Shown here: one piece after another, positions 13,257 through 56,958 of the stretch
Layout: the number at the start of each line of letters is the position of its first letter
How positions within the stretch are numbered: the stretch's first letter is position 1
From: Candidatus Buchananbacteria bacterium
Lineage (GTDB): Bacteria; Patescibacteriota; Patescibacteriia; 2-01-FULL-39-33; JBAYJR01
Assembly: GCA_041665005.1 (NCBI GenBank)
Contig: JBAYJR010000006.1
Location: 13,309-77,308 of the forward strand
Length of the DNA: 64,000 bases
Reading direction: 5' to 3'
Program-made: the position numbers and the translations under genes
The notes under the pieces: model-generated
What the model was told of the DNA's origin: nothing
The model's input: the letters and a program-made list of their open reading frames with translations, nothing else
Databases searched by the model: none

Positions 13257-13523
13257 ATGTCTAAAGAAAAAATTGCGGTTAATTTTAAAAAAGCTAACAG
13301 CTTGTTGGTTAAAATTTTAAAAATGCAGGAGTCCGGCGCTTACTGTGTGGATTTGATGCAACAAAATTTAGCCGTAATTGGTCTATTAAAATCCGCTCAT
13401 CAAATGCTAATGGAAGGGCATCTTAATTCTTGTTTTAAAAATGCTATGGCTTCCAAAAATGAAGCGCGTAAACAGCAGATGATTAAAGAAATTTTAACGG
13501 TTAGTAAATTAGCTAGTAAATAA
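13257..13523 (+). CDS. csoR: Copper-sensing transcriptional repressor CsoR family
   Basis: 88 aa. DUF156 fold signature with Cys ('GAYCVDLMQQ') and a later H-x3-C ('HLNSC'), the x-C-H-C fingerprint of Cu(I)-sensing CsoR. Confidence 0.75.
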   Translation: MSKEKIAVNFKKANSLLVKILKMQESGAYCVDLMQQNLAVIGLLKSAHQMLMEGHLNSCFKNAMASKNEARKQQMIKEILTVSKLASK

Positions 13524-13527
13524 TGGT

Positions 13528-14664
13528 ATGTCGGTAAAAAAGATAATAATTGGTTTATTGGTTTTGATTGCTTTGTCGTTAATCGGTGGCTGGTTTATTT
13601 TAGTGGGCAAGTTTCCGGCCTTAATTTTTCCTAGCTCTAATAGTTGGAGTTATTGGTTAATTTTTATGACCGGCTTAACCACGGGTGGTTTAACTTGTTT
13701 AGCAATTCAGGGGGGATTATTAATTAGTAGTATCTCGGCTCAGGAACAAGTAAACAAGCAGGTTAATAATTTAGCGGGACCACGGCGTAAGTTAGTGGCA
13801 ACTACGGCTTTTGTTTTAGCTAAGTTAATTGCTTATACGGTAGTTGGTTTTTTATTAGGTAGTTTGGGTTCAGTGTTGCAACTCAATGGGACGGTGCGGG
13901 CAAGTTTGCAGATTTTAATTGGGGTTTACATGCTGGCCGTGGCCTTAAATTTGTTATCAGTTCATCCGATTTTTCGTTATGTAGTGATACCGCCACCTCG
14001 TTTTTTGTATCGCTATTTAAAAAATTATTCACAACAGGGTGCGTGGTTTACGCCGGGTTTACTTGGAGCCTTAACAATTTTTTTGCCCTGTGCCACCACG
14101 CAAGCTATGGAAGTGTTAGCGCTAGGTAGTGGTAGCGCGGTACGCGGTGCAGCAATTATGCTTTGGTTTATTTTAGGTACTATTCCGATGTTTGTAATTT
14201 TAGGTTGGCTGATTACTCGTTTAGGTGAGAAAAAACAAAAACCCTTTTTTAAATTAGCGGGGGCGATTTTAATCGTCTTAGGCTTAATGACGGTTAATAG
14301 CGGTTTAATTTTAATTGGTAGTCCGGTTACCTGGCAGAGTGTGACTCAGGTTTTTGGTAAAGCAATAATATCTAACAACACTGAAATACAAGGTGGTAAA
14401 CAAGTGGTGACTATAAACATTGATAATTCTGGCTATAATCCTGGGCAGGTTGTGGTTAAAAAGGGCGTGCCGGTTCAGTTAATTTTAAAAACTAAAGAAA
14501 CTTATTCTTGCGCTCGGTCAGTGGTGTTTTCAGCCTTTAGTAAACGAGCGATTTTATTGCCGAATGATGAGCAGGTGGTAGAGTTTACTCCGGATAAGGT
14601 GGGAGATTTTTCTTTTTCTTGTAGTATGGGGATGTATCAAGGCATAATTAGAGTGGTGGATTAG
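13528..14664 (+). CDS. Membrane protein with DsbD/CcdA-like transmembrane core (Cys in TM helices) fused to a C-terminal cupredoxin-like domain
   Basis: 378 aa. TM cysteines 'TGGLTCLAIQGG' and 'FLPCATTQAMEV'. C-terminal beta-rich domain 'VVTINIDNSGYNPGQVVVKKGVPVQLILK...FSFSCSMGMYQG' (cupredoxin-like with C/M ligand candidates). Confidence 0.5.
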   Translation: MSVKKIIIGLLVLIALSLIGGWFILVGKFPALIFPSSNSWSYWLIFMTGLTTGGLTCLAIQGGLLISSISAQEQVNKQVNNLAGPRRKLVATTAFVLAKLIAYTVVGFLLGSLGSVLQLNGTVRASLQILIGVYMLAVALNLLSVHPIFRYVVIPPPRFLYRYLKNYSQQGAWFTPGLLGALTIFLPCATTQAMEVLALGSGSAVRGAAIMLWFILGTIPMFVILGWLITRLGEKKQKPFFKLAGAILIVLGLMTVNSGLILIGSPVTWQSVTQVFGKAIISNNTEIQGGKQVVTINIDNSGYNPGQVVVKKGVPVQLILKTKETYSCARSVVFSAFSKRAILLPNDEQVVEFTPDKVGDFSFSCSMGMYQGIIRVVD

Positions 14665-14673
14665 TTTTTTTCT

Positions 14674-14788
14674 TTGTCATTCCTGCGAAAGCAGGAATCC
14701 AGATTAATTTAGGTTGTTACTGTTACTCCCGAAGTGATTACTTCTCAGCAGAATATCCTCCTTAATTCTCTTGCCCTTTTGTAACCAA
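14674..14788 (+). repeat. About 115-nt intergenic repeat (copy 1), starting with a 'ttgtcattcc-N-ggaatc' hairpin
   Basis: About 88% identical over about 95 nt to 50417-50555: '...ggaatccagattaatttaggttgttactgttactcccgaagtgattacttctcagcagaatatcctccttaattctcttgcccttttgtaaccaa'. Confidence 0.7.
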
Positions 14789-14789
14789 T

Positions 14790-14996
14790 ATGAAAAAAAT
14801 AATTTTGAAAATAAAAACCATGCATTGTACAGGCTGTGCTTTGTTAATTGATGATGAATTACAAGCTCTGCCTGGAGTAATTAGCGCTAAAACCAGTTAT
14901 GCCAAAAGCCAAAGCGTAGTGGAATTTGAGGATGAGGTAAAAAATAGTGATTTAGTGGCCGCGGTCAAACGCGCCGGCTATGAAGTAGAAAACTAA
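14790..14996 (+). CDS. copZ: Copper chaperone CopZ (HMA domain)
   Basis: 68 aa. 'MHCTGCALLIDDEL' MxCxxC metal-binding motif. Confidence 0.85.
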   Translation: MKKIILKIKTMHCTGCALLIDDELQALPGVISAKTSYAKSQSVVEFEDEVKNSDLVAAVKRAGYEVEN

Positions 14997-15008
14997 TCAT
15001 TAATATTT

Positions 15009-17243
15009 ATGAATAAAAAAATTACTTTAGATATTAGTGGGATGCATTGTGCTTCTTGTGCGGTGCTAATTGAAAAAGCCTTAAAGCGAGTGTCAGGCGT
15101 AGTAGCAAGTAATGTCAATTATGCTTCGGAAAAGGCGCAGGTTGAAGCCGGACCAGAGGTTAAGTATGATGATTTAATTAAGGCGGTTAATGGTGTCGGC
15201 TATAAAGTTTTAGAAAACGCATTAACCGAACGTCCAGAAATGAACATGCCTGTGGGGCATGATCATGTAGCGATGTTGCGAGCTGAAGAGTTACAAGTAT
15301 TAAAACGTAAATTAATTTTTAGTATTATTTTAGCCATACCCATCGTAGTCTTGAGTATGGGCAGGTTAATTCCGGGTTGGCCTGAAATGTCATTAACTGT
15401 TTTGAATTCGGTTTTGTTAGTATTAACTACGCCAATTTTGTTTTGGGCCGGTGGGCAATTTTTTATTAGTGCCGTTAAATCCGCTCGTCACCTCCAGGCT
15501 AATATGGATACTTTGGTAGCGATGGGTACGGGAGTGGCTTATTTATATTCTTTAATTGCTACGCTGTGGCCCCAAATTTTTGTGATTGCGGGTAAAATGC
15601 CAGAGGTTTATTTTGATACCACGGCGGTAATCATTGCCTTAATTTTATTAGGTAAGTATTTAGAAAACCGGGCCAAGGGAAAAACCAATGAGGCAGTAAA
15701 GGAATTGATGGGCTTACAAGTTAAAATTGCACACGTTAAACGTCAGGGTCAGATAATTGATTTACCGATTGAGCAGGTAATTGTCGGTGATTTAATTTTA
15801 GTTAAACCGGGAGAAAAAATTCCCGTTGATGGTTTGATTGTTGAAGGATTATCGGCTGTTGATGAAGCAATGATTACGGGTGAGAGTTTGCCGATTGATA
15901 AAAAGGTGGGTGACATGGTGACTGGGGCGACGCTTAATATAATGGGAATGCTTATTTTTAGAGCGACGCAGGTGGGTTCGGGCACGGTTTTGGCGCAGAT
16001 AATTAAATTGGTACAAGAAGCGCAAGGTTCAAAAGCACCAATTCAACGTTTGGCTGATAAAATTTCAGGAATTTTTGTGCCGATGGTTATAATAATAGCA
16101 ATGGTTTCTTTTGTAACTTGGTTAGTTTTGGGTCCTGCGCCGGTTTTAACTTATGCTTTAATGGCTGCGGTAACCGTATTAATTATTGCTTGTCCTTGCG
16201 CCATGGGTCTGGCTACACCGACGGCGATTATGGTGGGTACTGGTCGAGGGGCCAAGCAGGGTATTTTATTTAAAGATGCTACTAGTTTGGAAAATTTACA
16301 AAAAGTAGCAGTGGTTGTTTTTGATAAAACTGGCACCCTAACCAAAGGTGAATTACAAGTGGTTAATTATAGTAATGATGAAGTTTTAAAAATTGCCGCC
16401 AGTCTAGAACAATATTCGGAACATCCTTTGGCTATGGCAGTGGTCACTAAGGCCAAAGACCAAAAAATTAATTTGTTAGCCGCGGCCGATTTTTTGGCCG
16501 TGGTGGGCTATGGTGTTAAAGCGAAAATTAAAAATCAAGAGTATATTTTAGGTAATCAAGCGTTATTAACCGAGAATAATATTAGTTTAACGGAAGTGGA
16601 ACAAAGTACAATTAAACAGTTAGAAGCTCAGGGACAAACCGTTTTATTACTAGCTGAGATTAGTCGCCGGCAATATTTAGGTTGTTTAGCTTTAGCTGAT
16701 ACGCTTAAATCAGAAGCGCGCGCGGCGGTGGCAAGTTTATTGCGTTTGAATATTATACCGATTATGTTGACTGGCGATAACGAAGCCACGGCGCAAACTA
16801 TTGCCGAGCAAGTGGGGATTAAAGAGTGGCGAGCAAAAGTAAAACCTGAGGATAAATTACGGATAGTGAGAGAATTAAAAAGTAAATATCAGACGGTGGC
16901 CATGGTGGGCGACGGTATTAATGATGCCCCAGCTTTAACCGAAGCCACGGTGGGCCTGGCGATGAGCACGGGGACAGATATTGCTATGGCGGCGGCTAGT
17001 GTTACAATTTTGCACGGCGACCTTAATAAAGTGGTGGAAGCAATAATACTTTCGCGCAAGACCATGAAAATAATCAAGGGTAATTTATTTTGGGCTTTTA
17101 TTTATAATATTTTAGGTTTACCGGTGGCCGCTGGAGTCCTTTATCCTTTAGGGGGAATAATGTTAAGTCCAATGTTGGCGGCCGGTGCCATGGCTTTTAG
17201 TTCGGTGTTTGTGGTTAGTAATTCTTTGCGTTTACGGCGTTAA
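15009..17243 (+). CDS. copA: Copper-translocating P1B-type ATPase CopA
   Basis: 744 aa. N-terminal HMA 'GMHCASCAV', 'CPC' in TM6 ('[11 protein letters not shown]'), 'DKTGTLT', 'GDGINDAP', 'TGES'. Confidence 0.92.
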
Positions 17244-20668: not shown

Positions 20669-20722
20669 CGTCATCTTGAACTTGCTTGCCCCGCGTAGCG
20701 GGGACCCGGGGTGGCTCTGCTG
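20669..20722 (+). repeat. GC-rich hairpin repeat, copy 1 ('gtcatcttgaacttgcttgccccgcgtagcggggacccggggtggctctgc')
   Basis: Near-identical to 50702-50748. Contains the hairpin ccccgc-gta-gcgggg. Immediately 3' of argS. Confidence 0.65.
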
Positions 20723-20764
20723 GAGTGCTATCAGGTAAATTAAATCAATAAAAAAGCCAACAAG

Positions 20765-24325: not shown

Positions 24326-25399
24326 ATGCCCCAACTTTGCCCCGAACTTACTACCAAACTAGAAATTCTTAAACAACTCAAGCAACAGTTTGATTTGGAA
24401 TTAACCAAAGTCAAAAATCTAGACCCTAAAAAGTCTAATGACCTTATTTCCATCAGAGACTTTAAAGCCAAACTAAACCAAACCCTCCAAGATCTCCAAA
24501 ACGAACTCTGGCTAGAAACCCCCGAACTAACCCAAGAAAACCTTAAAGCCCAATATGAAGCCCAAGTAGACCTTCTCCGTAAAAACAACCTCCTTAAAAC
24601 CCTCGCCACTGGTGAATTAGGCATTGAAGCAATTGATAAGCAAGAATACCCTATACCCACCCTAGAACAGATTGAAAAAATGATGCTAGAAGAACCAGAA
24701 TTCTTTAAAACCAAAATCAATCAAGGTTTTGTTAAGCTAGTCCTTGTTCCCTTTGGTTCACCAATAAGTTCTCTAATAGAAGCTTATGACAAGGCTCTAA
24801 TGGAACATCATCAGCAAGGTGAACTATTAGACACCCAAAATAAACCTTTGGGGCTTAATAAAGGGATTGGTGAAAAGTTTATTTTTGATAATGCTGAATT
24901 GGTAGAGGCTGAAGCTACAGGAGAATTAGTCTATTTTCCCAAAGAATTCTCTAAAACTACTCATCAAGGTAAAACCAAACAAGAACTTTTACCAACCCAA
25001 GCTTGGCAAGTCCTACTACTTGAAGACTTGCCTGATCTTCGAGATAAAGGTCAAGGTAAAACCGTTAATGGTCGTAAGCAACTAGGAGCCAACCAATCAC
25101 CCAATGGCTATCTTAAACAACTTCAAACGGATCAATATAAAGGTGAACAAGGTTTAACTCCAGAATCCTGGCTAGTTTACGGCTTAGGTCATTTAGAACA
25201 AACCAACCAAATGATTGAGGGCGGGGAAAGTAAGTATGATTATAGGGGTTGTTTTTTGGTTGGTGGTTATTTTAAAAAAACTGGCAGCGTGCCGAGTGCT
25301 TTTTCCGACCGTGGTCGTGCGCAGATCTACTTGGATCGGAATGCTTCGGGCCTTCCCATTTCCTTCCGTGCCGGCCGTTTCTCGGTGAGCATTTCTTGA
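24326..25399 (+). CDS. Paralog family member A (unknown function, hypervariable C-terminal tail)
   Basis: 357 aa starting MPQLCPELTTKLE. Over 90% nucleotide identity to copy B across the first about 330 nt. C-rich codon usage. Ends ...GRFSVSIS. Confidence 0.75.
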   Translation: MPQLCPELTTKLEILKQLKQQFDLELTKVKNLDPKKSNDLISIRDFKAKLNQTLQDLQNELWLETPELTQENLKAQYEAQVDLLRKNNLLKTLATGELGIEAIDKQEYPIPTLEQIEKMMLEEPEFFKTKINQGFVKLVLVPFGSPISSLIEAYDKALMEHHQQGELLDTQNKPLGLNKGIGEKFIFDNAELVEAEATGELVYFPKEFSKTTHQGKTKQELLPTQAWQVLLLEDLPDLRDKGQGKTVNGRKQLGANQSPNGYLKQLQTDQYKGEQGLTPESWLVYGLGHLEQTNQMIEGGESKYDYRGCFLVGGYFKKTGSVPSAFSDRGRAQIYLDRNASGLPISFRAGRFSVSIS

Positions 25400-25404
25400 T
25401 TTTT

Positions 25405-25434
25405 TTGTCATTCCGGACTTGATCCGGAATCTAG
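25405..25434 (+). repeat. 'ttgtcattcc-ggacttgatcc-ggaatc' hairpin repeat (copy between the tandem paralogs)
   Basis: Same 'gtcattcc...ggaatc' stem motif as at 14676, 50419 and 51887. Confidence 0.6.
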
Positions 25435-25454: not shown

Positions 25455-26537
25455 ATGCCCCAACTTTGCCCAGAACTTACTACCAAACTAGAATCCCTTA
25501 AAACGCTTAAACAACAGTTTGATTTGGAATTTATTAAAATTAAAAAGTTAGGCTCTAAAAAGTCTAATGACCTTATTTCCATCAGAGACTTTAAAGCCAA
25601 ACTAAACCAAACTCTCCAAGACCTCCAAAATGAACTCTGGCTAGAAACCCCCGAACTAACCCAAGAAAACCTTAAAGTTCAATATGAATTCCAGAAAGAT
25701 GTTCTTATTAAGGCTGGCCTCCTGAAAACCCTCTCTACTGGCGAATTAGGTATTAAAGCAATTAATAACAAAGAATACCCGATACCCACCCTAGAACAGA
25801 TTGAAGAAATGATGCTAGAAAAACCAGAATTTTTTAAAACTAAAATTAATCAGGGCTTTATTAAACTAATTATGGTTCCCTTTGGCTTACCAATAAGTTC
25901 CCTAATAGAGGCTTATGACAAGGCTCTTATGGAACATCATCAGCGAGGTGAGCTGCTAGACACCCAAAATAAACCATTGGGGCTTAATAAAGAGATTGGT
26001 AAAAAGTTTATTGATGATGATCAGGCTAAACATTATGTCCAAGCCGAAGCCACAGGGGACTTAGTATATTTCCCCCAAAAATTCTCTAAAACTGCTCATC
26101 AAGGTAAAACCAAACAGGAACTTTTGTCCACTCAAGCTTGGCAGGTTCTATTGCTTGAAGACCTACCCAACCTTCCAGATCAAGGTCAAGGTAAAATCAT
26201 AGCTAATCGCGAGCAACCAGAAGCCAGTCGATCACCAAATAGTTATCTTAAACAACTCCAAATCGACCTTCAATATGAAGGTGAACAAGGTTTAACCCCA
26301 GAATCCTGGTTAGTTTATGCCCTAAACCATTTAGCCCAAACTAATAAAGTGATTGGAAGCGGGGAAAGTAAGTATGGTTATATGGGCTGTTTTTTGCTTA
26401 ATAGTTTTTTTAAAGAATCTGGCAGCGTGCCGGGCACCTATTTCCGCTGTGGTAGTGCACAGGTCGATTTGGATCAGTATGCTCCGAATCATCCCTATTC
26501 CAACTATGCCGGCCGTTTTTTGGTGAGTATTATTTGA
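25455..26537 (+). CDS. Paralog family member B
   Basis: Start refined to ATG 25455 (MPQLCPELTTKLESLK...). The track ORF begins at 25419 with a non-ATG start. Ends ...GRFLVSII. Confidence 0.75.
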   Translation: MPQLCPELTTKLESLKTLKQQFDLEFIKIKKLGSKKSNDLISIRDFKAKLNQTLQDLQNELWLETPELTQENLKVQYEFQKDVLIKAGLLKTLSTGELGIKAINNKEYPIPTLEQIEEMMLEKPEFFKTKINQGFIKLIMVPFGLPISSLIEAYDKALMEHHQRGELLDTQNKPLGLNKEIGKKFIDDDQAKHYVQAEATGDLVYFPQKFSKTAHQGKTKQELLSTQAWQVLLLEDLPNLPDQGQGKIIANREQPEASRSPNSYLKQLQIDLQYEGEQGLTPESWLVYALNHLAQTNKVIGSGESKYGYMGCFLLNSFFKESGSVPGTYFRCGSAQVDLDQYAPNHPYSNYAGRFLVSII

Positions 26538-27206: not shown

Positions 27207-27257
27207 TAAAAAGCTTGTGCTCGTCGTTTAATTAGTTATCCGCCTGCCATTACCTGT

Positions 27258-27329
27258 GCCCTCATCGTTCAGTGGATAGGACACCAGATTCCGGATCTGG
27301 CAACAGAGGTTCGAGTCCTCTTGAGGGCA
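27258..27329 (+). tRNA. tRNA-Arg (anticodon CCG)
   Basis: Folded by hand. Acceptor gccctca/tgagggc, D-arm gttc-agtggata-ggac, anticodon arm ccaga-ttCCGga-tctgg, variable caac, T-arm agagg-ttcgagt-cctct, discriminator A. No encoded CCA. Confidence 0.85.
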
Positions 27330-27345
27330 AAGGCAACGGCAGGCG

Positions 27346-27403
27346 GGAAGCGTCAGCCTCCGGAGCTGAAAGACCGTGCGTTCAAATCGCACCGGGGACA
27401 CCA
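27346..27403 (+). other. tRNA 3'-half-like fragment ending in encoded CCA (anticodon arm + T arm + 3' acceptor strand, no matching 5' acceptor strand)
   Basis: 'tcagc-ctCCGga-gctga ... gtgcg-ttcaaat-cgcac-cggggac-a-cca'. No complementary 'gtccccg' upstream. An 8-bp inverted repeat cgcctgcc (27241) / ggcaggcg (27338) brackets the intact tRNA-Arg. Confidence 0.4.
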
Positions 27404-27516
27404 AATTAAATATTGTTGCGGGGCGGATCTCGTAACAGAGGTTTCCCAAAGGTATTACTTTGTGACGAGTCTCTGTCTGCCGGCAGGCAGGCTCTTGGGA
27501 GCACACGAGATTTATT

Positions 27517-27547
27517 ATCAACCAGACTAGGGTCTTGGTTTTTTTAA
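27517..27547 (+). terminator. Intrinsic terminator closing the tRNA/RNA locus
   Basis: 'accagac-tagg-gtcttggt' + ttttttt. Confidence 0.5.
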
Positions 27548-30691: not shown

Positions 30692-30784
30692 TGGAGCGGG
30701 AGAAAGGAGTCGAACCTTCGGCTTTTTGGTCGTCTAATTGTTTAGACAGAGAACCAAATACTCTACCCACTGAGTTACCCCCGC
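30692..30784 (-). tRNA. tRNA-like gene (Gly-like acceptor/discriminator U73, encoded CCA) with a 24-nt anticodon-loop region containing a 17-nt hairpin insertion
   Basis: Reverse complement: gcggggg-ta-actc-agtgggta-gagt-a-tttgg-[ttctctgtctaaacaattagacga]-ccaaa-aagcc-gaagg-ttcgact-ccttt-ctcccgc-t-cca. All arms canonical except the loop. If an insert is spliced out, one reading gives loop ttCTCga. Confidence 0.6.
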
Positions 30785-30789
30785 TTTGT

Positions 30790-30864
30790 TGGAGCGTATA
30801 GGATTTGAACCTATTATCTCTTGCTTGAAAGGCAAGCGCTTATCCTGATTTCAGCTTACGCTCC
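30790..30864 (-). tRNA. tRNA-Glu (anticodon UUC)
   Basis: Reverse complement: ggagcgt-aa-gct-gaaatcaggata-agc-g-cttgc-ctTTCaa-gcaag-agata-atagg-ttcaaat-cctat-acgctcc-a. Confidence 0.8.
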
Positions 30865-30890
30865 ATCGGAAATAATAGCTTTAATAAATT

Positions 30891-30966
30891 TGGTGAAGCG
30901 TATAGGATTTGAACCTACAACCTCTTTCTTTGCAAGAAAGGGCTCAACCAGTTGAGCTTACGCTTC
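30891..30966 (-). tRNA. tRNA-Cys (anticodon GCA), CCA encoded
   Basis: Reverse complement: gaagcgt-aa-gctc-aactggtt-gagc-c-ctttc-ttGCAaa-gaaag-aggtt-gtagg-ttcaaat-cctat-acgcttc-a-cca. The discriminator is A (the E. coli Cys identity element U73 is not present). Confidence 0.75.
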
Positions 30967-49112: not shown

Positions 49113-50357
49113 TTAATTTTGGTTGGTTATGGTTAAAGCGTTTTCACCGGCCAAGTGGCCAGTACTCCAGCAAGCTTGTAGATTGAAGCCACCAGTTGGT
49201 CCGGCCAAATCTAAGATTTCTCCGGCGAGTAGTAAATTGGGAATAATTTTTGAGCGCAGGGTTTTGGGGTCCACTTCGTTAAGAGCCACGCCGCCAGTGG
49301 TTAACATCGCCTTAGTATAATCTTCAACCTTGGTAACTTCCAGGCTAAAATTTTTAATTAAGTGGCTCAAGGTTTGGCGATTGGTTTTAGTAATTTGGTT
49401 AACTTCGGTTTCTGGTTTTATTTGGGCTTTAGTTAACAGGGTCAGCACTAATTTTGGGGTTAAAAGATTAGCTAAGACGTTTTTAATTTGTTTATTTTTA
49501 TTTTCCGAAAAAATAGTCCGTAAACGTAAATCTAGGCTGGCACTGGTTTCTTGAGGTAAAAAATCAAGATTTAAAGCAACGTGGGGCAAGGCGCGAGCGA
49601 CTTCACCGCTAGCATCAAAAATTGCCGGGCCACTAAGACCTTGGGCGGTAAAAATAGCTTCCCCGTGCTGACTGGCAATAACTTTATTATTTTTTAGCCA
49701 AGTAAAATTGACCTCGGTTAAACTCGTACCTTCTAATTGTTTGACAATTTTATCTTTAACGATAATTGGGGTTAGAGCGGGATAAGTTTTAGTAATGGTA
49801 TGACCCAGCTTAGCCAACCAAGTGTAGCCATCACCAGTAGAACCGGTTATCGGATAGGCTAAACCTCCGGTAGCAATTAAATAGTTATTAGCCGAAAATT
49901 CTTGGCCATCAGTTAAGACAATCTTGGTAATTAAATTTTTTTGTTTAATAATTTTTTTTACAGTTGCTCGAGTTATAACTTTTACCGAAGACTTCCGCAA
50001 ATAATCAAGCATAACCCTGAGAACATCGTTAGCTTTATTACTAACGGGAAAAACGCGGTTGGCTGTTTCTGTTTTTAGGGGCACGCCCCGGCTAGTAAAA
50101 AATTTAATAGTGTCAGAGGAATCAAATTTGGTTAAAGCCGAAAAAAGAAATTTACCGTTATTGCCAAAGGCTTTAACCAATGCTCGGACGTTGACGGCAT
50201 TAGTTAAATTGCAACGTTGGTTGCCAGTCAGTAGGAGTTTTAGGCCAGGTTGGTTGTTTTTTTCCAATAATAAAACTCGTGCGCCTAGTTCGCCGGCTCG
50301 GCCCGCCGCCATTAGGCCGGCTGGTCCGCCACCAATAACAATTAAATCGTAGTTCAT
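49113..50357 (-). CDS. HI0933-like (BaiN/aminoacetone-oxidase family) NAD(P)/FAD-dependent oxidoreductase
   Basis: 414 aa. 'YDLIVIGGGPAGLMAAGRA...GARVLLLEK' dinucleotide-binding motif, C-terminal 'GGFNLQ'. Confidence 0.75.
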   Translation of the reverse strand: MNYDLIVIGGGPAGLMAAGRAGELGARVLLLEKNNQPGLKLLLTGNQRCNLTNAVNVRALVKAFGNNGKFLFSALTKFDSSDTIKFFTSRGVPLKTETANRVFPVSNKANDVLRVMLDYLRKSSVKVITRATVKKIIKQKNLITKIVLTDGQEFSANNYLIATGGLAYPITGSTGDGYTWLAKLGHTITKTYPALTPIIVKDKIVKQLEGTSLTEVNFTWLKNNKVIASQHGEAIFTAQGLSGPAIFDASGEVARALPHVALNLDFLPQETSASLDLRLRTIFSENKNKQIKNVLANLLTPKLVLTLLTKAQIKPETEVNQITKTNRQTLSHLIKNFSLEVTKVEDYTKAMLTTGGVALNEVDPKTLRSKIIPNLLLAGEILDLAGPTGGFNLQACWSTGHLAGENALTITNQN

Positions 50358-50416
50358 GGTAATTATTTACCGTTTAAGTATAACAGCCATTTATAAAAAA
50401 TAAAAATATACACTTT

Positions 50417-50555
50417 TTGTCATTCCGGCCTACGAAAACCGCCTGCCTACCGGTAGGCAGGGAATCCAGATTAATTAAGGTTGTCACTATTACTCTCGAA
50501 GTGATTAAATCTCAGTAGAATGCCCTCCTTAATATCCTTGTCCTTTTGTAACCAA
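50417..50555 (+). repeat. About 115-nt repeat copy 2 (with an expanded first hairpin)
   Basis: 'ttgtcattcc-ggcctacgaaaaccgcctgcctaccggtaggcag-ggaatccagattaattaaggttgtcactattactctcgaagtgattaaatctcagtagaatgccctccttaatatccttgtccttttgtaaccaa'. Opposite orientation to the adjacent gene, unlike copy 1. Confidence 0.7.
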
Positions 50556-50701
50556 AAGGACCCACCGCCATGCGGGGCAGGCAAAAGTTTTGGGGGCCCA
50601 AATTTCCGCCCAAGGCGGACCAGCCTAGGGCTGGCGCTCTGCTATCTTATAAATTACTTGTTTTTATTTTTTAATCCTTGACGCTCAATTGTCACTTAGC
50701 T

Positions 50702-50748
50702 TGCCCCGCGTAGCGGGGACCCGGGGTGGTTCTGCCAGGATTTTTAAT
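50702..50748 (+). repeat. GC-rich hairpin repeat, copy 2
   Basis: 'tgtcacttagcttgccccgcgtagcggggacccggggtggttctgcc' matches 20669-20722. Confidence 0.65.
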
Positions 50749-50812: not shown

Positions 50813-51688
50813 TTAGCGAGTTAGTTGTGCTAACTCCTGTTTGGTGTGTTTCCGGCTTGTTCTGGCCGGAATTTTTACACCACGCCCTTTAGCGTTGGTG
50901 AGGGGGATTTTTTTCCCTTTTGCTTTCGCTTTGGGAGTGGCGACAATAATTTCTTCCGGATCAGGTTCGTCGGTCGTTACCATGGCAACTTCGTCAGTTG
51001 CCAAAGTGGTGACCGTAATCATCGGTTCCGGTGCCGGTTTTTCGATTGGGGCCGGGGCATTGTACCCCGGGATTTCGATATGGAAAGTCTCGTGACCTTC
51101 CAACTCTTTTTGCCAGTTTGCTTTGGAAAGCATTTCCTGGACTTTGGCGACGGCTTTTTTTGCCGCGACCTTGGTTGCCGGATCGGGGATCCGGTCAATT
51201 TCGTTCCAGTTTCCAACCAACACTTCGCCGGATTGTTGGTGGAGATACATTGGCTTTATTTCAACCATTTTTTCGCCGGTGCTGCGAACAGCACTGGCGG
51301 TTACCAGAGAGTAATCTCTGGCAAACGGTGTCGCCGATGCGACGGTGAATTGGAGGACACCGTGTTCAAAACGTCCTTCCGGTTGAGTTTTGATGCAGTA
51401 ATGATACTGCACCCTGTCCACTTGATTTTTAATATTTTTTATTTCTGTGATGACCCAGGAAAGGTCATCGGGGTTGTCACCTTTGACGGTGACAAATAAG
51501 TTTCCGCTGGCTTTGTCAAGCCAGGAGAACATTTGCGGAAGTCGGCGGTTTGCCTCTAACTGAAAAAAGTTTTCCAGATTTCCCTCTGGTTTGAGGGAAA
51601 TCGCCACTGCCGCATGGCAGTGGATAAAAGTCATCCAGGCTTCATAGCCTGGTTGACCTTTCTTTTTGGGATATACACGGGTAAACAT
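50813..51688 (-). CDS. Hypothetical 291-aa protein encoded in a GC-rich (about 50%) island, with a basic Lys/Arg-rich C-terminus
   Basis: Shine-Dalgarno 'aaggagggtaaact' before ATG 51688. No recognisable catalytic motif. Tail 'KAKAKGKKIPLTNAKGRGVKIPARTSRK'. Several overlapping spurious ORFs in other frames reflect the high GC. Confidence 0.6.
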   Translation of the reverse strand: MFTRVYPKKKGQPGYEAWMTFIHCHAAVAISLKPEGNLENFFQLEANRRLPQMFSWLDKASGNLFVTVKGDNPDDLSWVITEIKNIKNQVDRVQYHYCIKTQPEGRFEHGVLQFTVASATPFARDYSLVTASAVRSTGEKMVEIKPMYLHQQSGEVLVGNWNEIDRIPDPATKVAAKKAVAKVQEMLSKANWQKELEGHETFHIEIPGYNAPAPIEKPAPEPMITVTTLATDEVAMVTTDEPDPEEIIVATPKAKAKGKKIPLTNAKGRGVKIPARTSRKHTKQELAQLTR

Positions 51689-51868: not shown

Positions 51869-51884
51869 CTTTTGTTGTTTAACT

Positions 51885-51957
51885 TTGTTATTCCGTACTT
51901 GTTTGACCCATCATCGGCGGTGAATGCGCCTGCCTGCTGTTAGGCAAGTGCGGAATG
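51885..51957 (+). repeat. Divergent copy of the 'ttgt(c/t)attcc...ggaat' hairpin element with a long loop containing cgcctgcct...aggcaag
   Basis: 'ttgttattccgtacttg...gcgcctgcctgctgttaggcaagtgcggaatg'. Resembles the expanded hairpin at 50417-50465. Confidence 0.4.
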
Positions 51958-51968
51958 ATAAAGAAAAT

Positions 51969-53018
51969 TTAAAGAATACTCACCGCAAAACGAACAGAAT
52001 CATCAGAGCTGGGATCGCCCGGAGTGCTCTGATACAAATCAACCGTCTCACTGTCACGGCTGAAATCGGCGTCTGGCACACTGCTAGATTTAAAATAGCT
52101 ATTAAGTAAACAACAAGCCTTACCCGAGCCTTGCCAGTCATCAATCACTTGATCGGTTTGGGTTAGATGAGTTAGGGCATAAACTAGCCAGGATTCTAGG
52201 GTTAAACCTTGCTCACCTTTATATTGAGGGTCAGTTTGGAGTTGTTTAAGATAGTCATTGGGTGATTTATTAGCTTCTGGTTGTTTACGACCAGCTAAAA
52301 CTTTGCCCTTTCCTTCACCTGGAAGATCAGGCAAGTCTTCAAGTAACAGGACTTGCCAGGCTTGGGTGGCTAGGAGTTGTTTTTTAGTTTTACCTTGATG
52401 AGTAGTTTTAGAGTATTCTTGAGGGAAATATACTAAATATCCTTTAGCTTCAGCCTTGGCGCATCCAAACCAATCATTGATAGGTTCTTCCCTAAGTCTT
52501 AAAGGTTTATCTTGAGTGTCCAAGAGTTTACCTTGTTGATGGTGTTTGGTTAAGGAGTTGCCATAGGCCTTAATTAGAGAATCTAGAGGCAAGCCAAAGG
52601 GGACAATGATTAGTTTAACAAAGCCTTGATTAATTTTGGTTTTCAAGAACTCTTTGTTTTTTAACATTTTATTCTCAATCTGTTCTAGGGTGGGTATCGG
52701 GTATTCTTGGTGGTTAATTGCCTCAATACCCAATTCGCCAGTGGCGAGGGTTTTAAGGAGGTTGGTTTTACGGAGGAGGTCTACTTGGGCTTCATATTGG
52801 GCTTTAAGATTTTCTTTAGTTAGTTCGGGGGTTTCTAGCCAGAGTTCGTTTTGGAGTTCTTGGAGAGTTCGTTCTAATCTAAATTTAACAACCCTAATAA
52901 ACATCAGATCGTCTGACTTACCTGTTTGAGGCAAACTGGCTAATTCTTGATTGAACGTTTGTTTCAGTTGTTTGAGGGACTCTAATTCACTGGTGAGTCT
53001 TTGGCAGGATTGGGACAT
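51969..53018 (-). CDS. Paralog family member C (inverted, about 27 kb from A/B)
   Basis: 349 aa. About 70-75% aa identity to A/B through the body ('LWLETPELT.ENLKAQYEAQVDLLRK.NLLKTLATGELGIEAI', 'KTKINQGFVKLI.VPFG', 'HQGKTK', 'TQAWQVLLLEDLPDL', 'ESWLVY'). Divergent tail ending ...VRFAVSIL. Confidence 0.75.
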   Translation of the reverse strand: MSQSCQRLTSELESLKQLKQTFNQELASLPQTGKSDDLMFIRVVKFRLERTLQELQNELWLETPELTKENLKAQYEAQVDLLRKTNLLKTLATGELGIEAINHQEYPIPTLEQIENKMLKNKEFLKTKINQGFVKLIIVPFGLPLDSLIKAYGNSLTKHHQQGKLLDTQDKPLRLREEPINDWFGCAKAEAKGYLVYFPQEYSKTTHQGKTKKQLLATQAWQVLLLEDLPDLPGEGKGKVLAGRKQPEANKSPNDYLKQLQTDPQYKGEQGLTLESWLVYALTHLTQTDQVIDDWQGSGKACCLLNSYFKSSSVPDADFSRDSETVDLYQSTPGDPSSDDSVRFAVSIL

Positions 53019-53296
53019 AAAAATAATTTAAAGTTTGACTGATTTTTGACAGCTAAACTTGTGTCTATCTTAACAAAAACCCTTACTTTTTACAAATAAG
53101 TTAGACCAGAATAAGCCGGTAAGCAAGTCAGCATATCAGCAAGTCAGAAAACTTGGGGTTACAAGTGGGCCAGATTCTGAATTCACCACCAATGGCGTGA
53201 CCGGCAAACTTAGGATGGCGGGGATCCCTAAGTGCTTCTGTTAGAGTTTTGTTAAGTAACTTAAAATAAGTAAAAATTATTTTTTAGAAAACAAAA

Positions 53297-53330
53297 AAGC
53301 CGATTGTGGTATTACGCTTTCGGCTTGTTT
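53297..53330 (-). terminator. Intrinsic terminator (minus strand)
   Basis: 'aagccg-attgtggtattacgcttt-cggctt' preceded by aaaaaa (T-run on the minus strand). Confidence 0.45.
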
Positions 53331-56265: not shown

Positions 56266-56958
56266 ATGCCAAAAATCAAAGTTATCATTTTAGGTCTTGG
56301 TTGGTTAATTTTAGCCTGGCCGGTTTTGGCGGCGATGGATTCAGCTAATTATACTATTTACGCTGATGTGCTTTCTACTGGGGGCAATTATGGCACTTCA
56401 GACACTAATTATAAATTATGGGATACTTTAGGTGAGGCGATTATTAGCACCGCTTCTAGTACTAGCTATGGGGTTAAGCAGGGTTTTCAGTTGATGAATC
56501 GCGACAATAATGTAATTACCTTGAGTCTTTCGGCGGCTAGTTTAAATTTTGGCACGCTTTCGGCCAGTGAAACTAAAACTGCTAGTCATACTTTAACTGT
56601 TAGTACTAATGCGGCGAATGGCTATACTATTAGTTATGCGGGGTCTACTTTAAGTTTTGATACTTATACAATTAGTCCGATTGGTGCTAGTCCGGTAGTG
56701 CCGGCGACCCCTGGTAGTATCCAACAATTTGGTTTAAATGTAATCAATCCCACTGGTTCGGCGCCAATTGGTAGTACGGTGGCTAATTATGGTGATGCAA
56801 GTAAATACGCTTTTTCTAGCGGTGACGTGGTGGCACAAGCTAATAGTGCGGTTAATCAAACTGTTTATACGGTTGGTTATGTGGCCAATATTCAAGCCGG
56901 CATGCAGGCGGGTACCTACACTACTAATTTGGTATTTACCGCCACGGGAAATTTTTAA
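56266..56958 (+). CDS. Secreted Ser/Thr-rich hypothetical protein
   Basis: Signal peptide 'MPKIKVIILGLGWLILAWPVLAA', low-complexity S/T/N-rich body. Confidence 0.5.
   Translation: MPKIKVIILGLGWLILAWPVLAAMDSANYTIYADVLSTGGNYGTSDTNYKLWDTLGEAIISTASSTSYGVKQGFQLMNRDNNVITLSLSAASLNFGTLSASETKTASHTLTVSTNAANGYTISYAGSTLSFDTYTISPIGASPVVPATPGSIQQFGLNVINPTGSAPIGSTVANYGDASKYAFSSGDVVAQANSAVNQTVYTVGYVANIQAGMQAGTYTTNLVFTATGNF

Follow-up and report, generated by a model that had tools for sequence, protein, structure and literature searches.

An oriented NTS/dRS3-type hairpin leads a probable modular intergenic DNA repeat in a Candidatus Buchananbacteria genome

Small extragenic palindromes that combine with other motifs into mosaics are familiar from the REP (repetitive extragenic palindrome) and BIME (bacterial interspersed mosaic element) families of enterobacteria and pseudomonads, which go with RAYT HUH transposases, and from the BOX elements of Streptococcus pneumoniae. 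The REP palindrome has a GTAG-type 5' tetranucleotide, often stands in inverted doublets (REPIN) and is accompanied by a RAYT gene. The closest described systems are those of Neisseria. The Neisseria Transformation Sequence (NTS), described in 2025, is a 28-nt oriented hairpin, CGTCATTCCCGCGMAVGCGGGAATCYRG, which contains the classical dRS3 repeat and is bound and cut, as single-stranded DNA (ssDNA) only and on one strand only, by SsnA, a 94-aa GIY-YIG protein (cd10448) shown not to act on RNA (PMC11893778). The three bases 5' of its palindrome matter most for cleavage and the C after the palindrome for binding; the wider class of Ssn-related motifs (SRM) goes with Ssn homologues in several phyla, and the gene for Ssn, a small single-domain protein, is usually flanked by the repeats (PMC11893778). 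In the Neisseria intergenic mosaic elements (NIME), dRS3 hairpins flank RS units of 50-150 bp, forming intergenic mosaics beside variable genes (PMC1797815). Here we analyse a hairpin-led repeat in a 64,000-nt stretch of a Candidatus Buchananbacteria genome (GenBank assembly GCA_041665005.1, contig JBAYJR010000006.1, positions 13,309 to 77,308 of the forward strand), called the window below. The host belongs to the Patescibacteria, or candidate phyla radiation (CPR), whose genomes are small, and we found no paper describing REP-type repeats or miniature inverted-repeat transposable elements (MITEs) in this group.

A first-pass annotation of the window had reported a unit of about 115 nt present twice at about 88% identity, each time led by a hairpin. 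The repeat is real and hairpin-led, at an identity of 86% (82/95 by direct count; blastn-short gives 86.3% over 95 nt, E 1.3e-19). The unit is better described as the 5' part of an NTS/NIME-like modular repeat of ~340 bp (window 50414-50745), a kinship that had gone unrecognised. With moderate confidence we read the whole as an intergenic DNA repeat of modular build, confined to one lineage and of the NIME/BIME kind, and not as an RNA leader. Comparisons drew on L051, an 82-kb contig of the European Nucleotide Archive (ENA) from a related organism, reached via a protein of the paralogue family described below; on L058, a contig of the same ENA assembly; on L050, L053 and L054, relatives' contigs used for the comparison of orthologous junctions; and on L049 and L052, short Logan contigs of the window's own genome.

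The leading hairpin is an oriented hairpin of the NTS/dRS3 type. Both window copies of the long unit that follows it, module A, are directly preceded by TTTGTCATTCC...GGAATC. The hairpin ahead of copy 1 (H1), which begins 8 nt past the stop codon of a DsbD/cupredoxin gene, agrees with the NTS consensus at 25 of 28 positions (14675-14702), and its three mismatches include a compensatory change of one stem pair, from C:G to T:A; none of 100 shuffles gives any match. With at most one mismatch, TTTGTCATTCC occurs seven times in the window against 1.44 +/- 1.26 times in shuffles, none of 100 of which reaches seven, and five of the seven matches fall in the four intergenic hairpins (H4 being counted on both strands). 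Two of these hairpins stand alone, as had been reported: H3 is intact, and H4 is degenerate, its insert combining a degenerate 20-nt palindrome with a CATCGGCGG module that is also present in the L051 hairpin H6. The loops had been put at 4, 11, 34 and about 55 nt; measured from ATTCC to GGAAT they are 10, 11, 34 and 57 nt, the "4" being the tetraloop of the 8-bp-stem version. The core shared by the two long loops corresponds to the 20-nt palindrome family CCTGCCTRCCGGYAGGCAGG.

The pattern of substitution within the stem is informative. The L051 hairpin ahead of module A, H5, reads TTTGTC-ATTCCGGG-CTTGA-CCCGGAAT-C, and the inner three stem pairs covary, being TGC/GCA in H1, GGA/TCC in H3 and GGG/CCC in H5, while the flanks are constant. 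As the inner pairs differ yet stay complementary, the hairpin itself is what is conserved. GTC-ATTCC...GGAAT-C is kept in H1, H2, H3 and H5; H4 and H6 are degenerate, and the H6-H5 doublet of L051 is direct, not inverted. Relatives have hairpin variants of their own (L050 1482-1497, 6647-6668 and 7730-7745; L058 10586-10615), such as ATTCCCCTC-loop-GAGGGGAAT and GTCATCCCGGA-CCGCGA-TCCGGGATCCAG, so the hairpin type is common to the clade and its inner stem lineage-specific. A check of strand bias, which the first-pass annotation had proposed, found all six hairpins and all module copies with the NTS-sense sequence on the G-rich strand, including two in a stretch where the genes lie on the minus strand.

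Module A is a companion module comparable to the Neisseria RS element. Beyond the two window copies (which a repeat search of the window aligns as 14694-14793 with 50461-50560, 85% over 100 nt), a third lies at L051 7025-7119 (nhmmer E 8e-22), directly behind a TTTGTC hairpin and beside different genes; the idea of a repeat family that reaches beyond one gene context is thereby borne out in a related genome. Identity among the three is 83-86%, rising to 87-93% in a 71-nt core, with copy 1 and the L051 copy at 84% overall and 93% in the core. The synonymous divergence (dS) of the neighbouring paralogues is 0.5-1.1 and unsaturated, and judged by this yardstick module A is conserved above neutral expectation. 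The 13 mismatches between copies 1 and 2 involve all bases. We also considered a template/variable repeat pair of a diversity-generating retroelement, and rejected it: the mismatches are not adenine-specific, the copies are non-coding, and there is no reverse transcriptase among the scanned window ORFs (open reading frames).

Wider searches for module A added little. Viral contigs, GTDB representatives and JGI metagenomes were scanned for exact matches to four patterns, two taken from module A and two from conserved blocks; only chance matches came back and the source contig itself was not recovered, so these scans reveal little on close relatives; blastn of phage and plasmid collections gave zero matches. 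Position 1 of the Logan contig L049 (SRR6484324, same organism) corresponds to window 50566, ~10 nt past the outer edge of copy 2, the kind of break to be expected where the continuing sequence is a repeat or varies within the population. On its minus strand, module A holds a perfect TAAGGAGG (plus strand CCTCCTTA) in all three copies, in a window where Shine-Dalgarno motifs are scarce (3 strong cases among 44 gene starts).

The full composite is seen when L051 (7003-7300) is aligned with window copy 2: homology runs for ~340 nt, with 75% identity over 305 aligned columns, in the order hairpin, module A, a replaced GC-rich stretch, block B, an AT-rich spacer, block C and block D (Table 1). The GC-rich stretch, V1, is replaced in the L051 alignment, and the minimum free energy structure pairs it with 50699-50722. 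Block B shares AAATTTCCGCCCnAGGCGGACCAGCCTnGGGCTGGCGCTCT between window and L051, and its double hairpin is found twice more in L051 (4225-4258 and 4324-4357), within an array of incomplete tRNA-Asn copies in tandem. That array (L051 4190-4487) comprises 2.4 tandem copies of a 99-nt unit, 100% identical and ending in an intact tRNA-Asn, each unit containing a 5' piece of tRNA-Asn(GTT) whose D-arm position is taken by a GC-rich double hairpin of 31 nt. The block D consensus, GACCCrGGGTGsTTCTGnCAGG, is common to L051 and 20702-20725, where it overlaps a solitary 37-nt GC module (20684-20720) that is a 97% repeat of the one at 50699. The 20-nt palindrome likewise occurs independently: it lies within the hairpin loop in the window (50442-50461) and after module A in L051, and degenerate versions are found at 51929-51948 and 27472-27491. 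The last of these belongs to the surroundings of tRNA-Arg(CCG) (27230-27520), which is bracketed by CCGCCTGCC / GGCAGGCGG and followed by a partial tRNA-like 3' half ending ...GGGGACACCA (Rfam tRNA 18.6 bits, E 0.31) before the palindrome. Full-length copies thus exist at 50414-50745 and in L051, and partial ones at 14673-14788 (hairpin and module A) and 20684-20725 (3' modules); because the modules are found in different combinations, the repeat is a mosaic. The GC-rich region upstream of the third paralogue gene (53104-53300) shows no significant homology with the composite.

Table 1. Hairpins and modules of the repeat in the window
Feature	Position	Strand	Description
H1	14673-14699	+	TTTGTC + ATTCCTGC-GAAA-GCAGGAAT + C; 8-bp stem, NTS-like
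Module A, copy 1	14694-14788	+	95 nt, AT-rich; 3' end 1 nt before copZ ATG
37-nt GC module + block D, solitary	20684-20725	+	argS 3' region, before argS terminator
H3, alone	25404-25432	+	TTTGTC + ATTCCGGA-CTTGA-TCCGGAAT + C; intact, 8-bp stem; between two tandem paralogue genes
20-nt palindrome, degenerate	27472-27491	+	TCTGTCTGCCGGCAGGCAGG; downstream of tRNA-Arg
H2	50416-50466	+	TTTGTC + ATTCC...GGAAT + C; perfect 20-nt palindrome 50442-50461 nested in loop/3' arm
Module A, copy 2	50461-50555	+	86% identical to copy 1
V1, variable GC-rich region	50557-50599	+	imperfect inverted copy of 37-nt module 50699-50735
Block B	50600-50644	+	AAATTTCCGCCCAAGGCGGACCAGCCTAGGGCTGGCGCTCTGCTA; two adjacent GC hairpins; ~95% identical to L051 7166-7210
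Block C	50671-50695	+	TTAATCCTTGACGCTCAATTGTCAC; 25/25 identical in L051
37-nt GC module + overlapping block D	50699-50739	+	GCTTGCCCCGCGTAGCGGGGACCCGGGGTGGTTCTGC, GACCCGGGGTGGTTCTGCCAGG; composite 3' end
H4, degenerate	51884-51962	+	TTTGTT + ATTCCGTAC...GTGCGGAAT + G (TTTGTTATTCC...GGAATG); 57-nt insert

Orthologous junctions in relatives indicate how the copies came to lie where they do. Copy 1 sits in a copper operon made up of csoR (13257-13523), a DsbD_2/cupredoxin membrane protein gene (13528-14664), the element (14673-14788), copZ (14790-14996) and copA (15009-17243). The spacer from the DsbD/cupredoxin gene to the copZ-type gene is 125 nt in the window, as against 13 nt in L053 and 1 nt in L054. 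Removal of the element leaves a spacer of 9 nt, which falls within the relatives' range of 1-13 nt, and copy 1 is therefore an insertion into a tight junction of the cop operon. Its homology to the other copies stops exactly at the element borders, and the junction after excision joins TAGTTTTTTTC to TATG with no duplicated bases. The gene order of the operon differs between genomes, L053 (3435-7255) and L054 (7220-11315) both having csoR, copA, DsbD/cupredoxin, copZ, and the closest DsbD/cupredoxin homologues are just ~50% identical.

Copy 2 lies in a 455-nt spacer between two minus-strand genes, one for a 291-aa orphan protein (50813-51688), whose terminator borders the spacer, and one for an HI0933-type flavoprotein (49113-50357), whose promoter borders it on the other side; the copy is on the strand opposite to the flavoprotein gene, ~60 nt upstream of its start. 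In L050 the flavoprotein is 70% identical and its extended -10 promoter (TGtTATACT) is kept with no element upstream, and the flavoprotein locus of L058 has no element upstream either. The full-length copies differ in their flanks, with dUTPase and paralogue genes in L051 versus the orphan and flavoprotein genes in the window. The orientations given in the first-pass annotation were right, copy 1 reading in the same sense as copZ, which follows it immediately, and copy 2 running antisense to the gene of the flavoprotein, so that the two window copies stand in opposite orientation to the downstream gene. The absence of the element from the relatives' junctions leads us to regard the copies as insertions and not as conserved leaders. 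This was also the annotators' expectation, which the search for the element in orthologous 5' regions of L053, L054, L050 and L058 confirms: a position conserved in none of these four and an inconsistent orientation speak against a riboswitch or conserved 5' leader.

How might such a repeat work? On the reading as a modular DNA repeat, the modules would act as ssDNA hairpins on one strand, either on the lagging-strand template or in incoming transforming DNA. They would be recognised by a site-specific single-strand nuclease or recombinase, which could be an Ssn-type GIY-YIG protein, as in Neisseria, or an enzyme of the HUH/RAYT type. This enzyme would spread the modules, or cut near them and so modulate how incoming DNA recombines close to the neighbouring variable genes, or both; transcribed copies would merely add stable stem-loops between cistrons. 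The one hint that the hairpins might be cleaved as ssDNA on a single strand is their uniform orientation on the G-rich strand. The enzyme part of this scheme is a prediction, since no gene for such an enzyme lies in the window. A more ambitious version would make the repeat a CPR counterpart of the Neisseria NTS/NIME-Ssn system, in which nuclease-read hairpins gate the recombination of incoming DNA around a fast-diverging family of ~20 genes and around hairpin-bracketed orphan genes, with cassettes exchanged between co-resident CPR lineages; we put this forward tentatively, as a doubtful proposal.

Several observations weigh against the reading as a mobile, NTS-like DNA repeat. The best match to the NTS consensus has three mismatches, beyond the single mismatch that the counting rule of PMC11893778 allows, and H3 and H5, with their 5-nt loops, need an indel. 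The published degenerate SRM pattern HGTCWYN(0-2)YYVSBRHN(0-5)WNVSBRGN(0-2)RNCYNB gives no matches in the window or in L051; it is matched by the variant hairpins of relatives at L058 10586-10615 and L050 6404-6431. RS units are bounded by dRS3 on both sides, and module A has its hairpin on the 5' side only in all three copies. Neither terminal inverted repeats nor a target-site duplication is present at the ends of the 115-nt and 340-nt units. No GIY-YIG, HUH, Y1 transposase or other recombinase gene lies within the 64-kb window, and a Pfam scan of 59 window ORFs gave no GIY-YIG match. The three copies of module A are about equidistant from one another, which fits old, constrained copies better than recent transposition, and just three copies of module A and six hairpins were found in ~104 kb sampled from two genomes. 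Finally, five independent loci underlie the same-strand bias (two-sided p ~0.06), and gene orientation partly confounds it.

The alternative that survives best is that the ~340-nt composite is a gene for a structured non-coding RNA (ncRNA), with one full-length copy per genome and with the copies in the cop operon and at 20684 as partial duplicates. Module A might then be a functional sub-domain, perhaps a small RNA derived from a 3' untranslated region, in which CCUCCUUA perhaps mimics an anti-Shine-Dalgarno sequence. One full-length copy was indeed found in each of the two related genomes, with different flanks; invariant blocks (25/25 and ~95%) are separated by replaced helices, the central domain of each full-length copy is closed by a long helix of different sequence, and the core is more conserved than neighbouring synonymous sites. 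Full-length copies fold with z-scores of -3.5 to -4.6 against shuffles (-3.7 to -4.6 for the values cited in favour of an RNA), RNAalifold pairs the 3' part of module A with block D in an 11-bp long-range helix in which all four one-sided changes are G:U-compatible on the plus strand, and wobble pairs preserve a GUYACU/AGUGAY hairpin of module A in each of the three copies. However, the two strands fold equally well (-104.2 vs -103.5 and -115.2 vs -115.9 kcal/mol), which is what palindromic DNA should do, and the excess of wobble-compatible changes (9 on the plus strand vs 5 on the minus, with the L051 structure as reference) is not significant. Module A has a weak consensus fold (-6.5 and -8.1 kcal/mol) in which one pair covaries. 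Neither a sigma-70-like promoter nor an intrinsic terminator is found in or at the units on either strand; the T-run of the hairpins precedes the stem, so they are not intrinsic terminators. Rfam gives nothing at the gathering threshold in the window, and nothing at permissive E-values for the three copies. The modules occur independently elsewhere, and the leading hairpin belongs to a DNA-level family whose nuclease, SsnA, does not act on RNA (PMC11893778). We consider an ncRNA gene unlikely on this evidence. For the trans-acting small RNA of the first-pass annotation, promoter, terminator and strand-specific structural support are all wanting. Nor is there a coding alternative: no ATG, GTG or TTG ORF is common to the copies, and a frame of 14-16 codons behind the minus-strand AAGGAGG, open in all three, was rejected as it has a CTG start only and ~2 synonymous vs 4 non-synonymous changes (hand count).

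A second alternative, which we likewise regard as unlikely, is that the units are passive remnants of segmental duplication, of gene conversion or of horizontal exchange in the course of the paralogue family's expansion, with no mobility or function of their own. This family of ~350-aa proteins, with genes at window 24326-25399 (+), 25455-26537 (+) and 51969-53018 (-) and at L051 7446-8615 and 8695-9699, has ~20 members in the metagenome-assembled genome of the window. H3, H4 and the L051 composite directly adjoin its genes. Moreover, the paralogues of L051 and the window are 78% identical as DNA with unsaturated dS, while the L058 orthologues of the flavoprotein and the ABC protein are saturated, which suggests exchange of the whole neighbourhood. 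Against passive inheritance, copy 1 stands alone in the cop operon, 10 kb from any paralogue, with its homology ending at the element borders; the modules have sharp boundaries and recombine independently; the core has changed less than would be expected of neutral DNA over such a time; and the hairpin keeps the functionally critical bases of NTS. The same geography lends no support to the earlier proposal that the repeat is the recombination substrate linking the paralogue loci: two of the four window hairpins do abut paralogue-family genes, but copy 1 is remote from them and the paralogue locus on L052 is without any hairpin.

The weakest alternative, a cis-regulatory leader (riboswitch or attenuator) of copZ-copA and, on the other strand, of the flavoprotein gene, draws on the placement of copy 1, in sense and ending 1 nt before the copZ start, and of copy 2 just upstream of the flavoprotein start, but is very improbable and already contradicted by the comparison with relatives, given the short copZ spacers of relatives, the flavoprotein promoter that is kept without the element in L050 and the element-free locus of L058, the opposed orientations, and a third copy that precedes a gene with a promoter region of its own and, like the others, has no Rfam match.

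The paralogue family itself has dN/dS of 0.2-0.35 and unsaturated dS both within the genome and against L051. It has no match in Pfam, NCBIfam, PHROG or PADLOC and no significant sequence match in the PDB; its AlphaFold model is confident (pLDDT 89, pTM 0.84), and the best Foldseek hit against the PDB has E = 1, with no fold match. The 291-aa orphan gene, bracketed by H2 and H4, has ~50% G+C against 38% for the genome, a strong promoter of its own (TTGACA-17-TATTAT), a terminator and one of the rare Shine-Dalgarno sites, and it encodes a protein with a Lys/Pro-rich tail that has one homologue (44% identity) among 1.84 billion representative proteins. The order H2, orphan gene, H4 may recall the NTS-gene-NTS arrangement of Neisseria, and is only a resemblance. 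Either the paralogue family or the orphan gene was considered as the missing hairpin enzyme and set aside, as family, PADLOC and PDB searches give no support. Turning to the two contigs of the ENA assembly, the flavoprotein and ABC-ATPase of L058 have 65-71% protein identity to those of the window, with saturated synonymous sites, and the paralogue and composite of L051 have 78-80% DNA identity to the window's. Either L051 and L058 come from different organisms, or lineages that co-occur in sample SRR6484324 have exchanged the paralogue/element neighbourhood.

As for the wider setting, the window encodes proteins identical to those of a Candidatus Buchananbacteria metagenome-assembled genome with locus tags WCW02_. 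It has a G+C content of 38% and a GC skew that is positive over its full length, and it carries core-genome content including argS, ileS, ruvA, recA, ssb, efp, ribosomal proteins and histidine genes. At 30692-30966 (minus strand) Rfam gives three tRNAs (30695-30784, 30790-30864 and 30894-30966), of which ARAGORN gives two, calling the first a 93-nt tRNA-Glu(CTC); the disagreement possibly reflects an unusual or intron-containing tRNA. Two NCBIfam models of CPR-type Pam pilins match the protein encoded at 56266-56958 (plus strand), one for the Pam pilin C-terminal domain (1e-27; above its cut-off) and one for PamT (6e-31; below its cut-off).

The reading as a modular DNA repeat has consequences beyond this locus. 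In Neisseria this same oriented hairpin serves to control how transforming DNA is integrated; here it is part of mosaics that lie beside a large, diverging gene family and have been inserted into an operon. Either Ssn/NTS-type ssDNA recognition reaches the CPR, or some unrelated mechanism has arrived at this hairpin by convergence, and either option would bear on gene exchange and diversification in these episymbionts. There is also a practical side: such repeats break assemblies, as with the Logan contig that ends within ~10 nt of the repeat edge, and they can pass for riboswitches or small-RNA genes.

Among described families, MITEs such as the Correia elements are likewise short, non-coding, multi-copy and inserted near genes; none of the copies here shows terminal inverted repeats or a target-site duplication, and of the REP/MITE-like character first suggested for this structured family it is the REP-type part that stands. 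With REP, BIME and BOX elements it has in common its sites just past stop codons or between cistrons, the coexistence of partial and full combinations, and the stable folding of both strands. It differs from REP and BIME in a conserved 5' flank that is TTTGTC instead of GTAG, in having no inverted doublets and no RAYT gene in the window, and in lacking sequence similarity.

The Neisseria systems come closest. NIME dRS3 is ATTCCC-N8-GGGAAT, whereas the hairpin here is ATTCC-N10/11-GGAAT with an 8-bp stem; on its other side module A borders on unrelated GC palindromes, the arrays seen are short, at one ~340-bp composite, and there is no sequence relation to Neisseria RS elements. As in NIME, however, an ATTCC(C)...(G)GGAAT hairpin is followed by a repeat unit of ~95 bp and lower GC, so that GC alternates between hairpins and unit, and further small repeats join them in a mosaic, next to a multigene family that is diversifying. 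From NTS and SRM the repeat differs in its stem, ATTCC plus three variable pairs and not ATTCCCGCG, and in its host, a member of the Patescibacteria (CPR), a phylum unmentioned in PMC11893778. Like them, it is oriented, multi-copy, extragenic and placed beside variable genes, and it shares with them the outer bases GTC-ATTCC...GGAAT-C(C/T)AG, of which the GTC and the C that are critical for SsnA are kept in H1, H2, H3 and H5.

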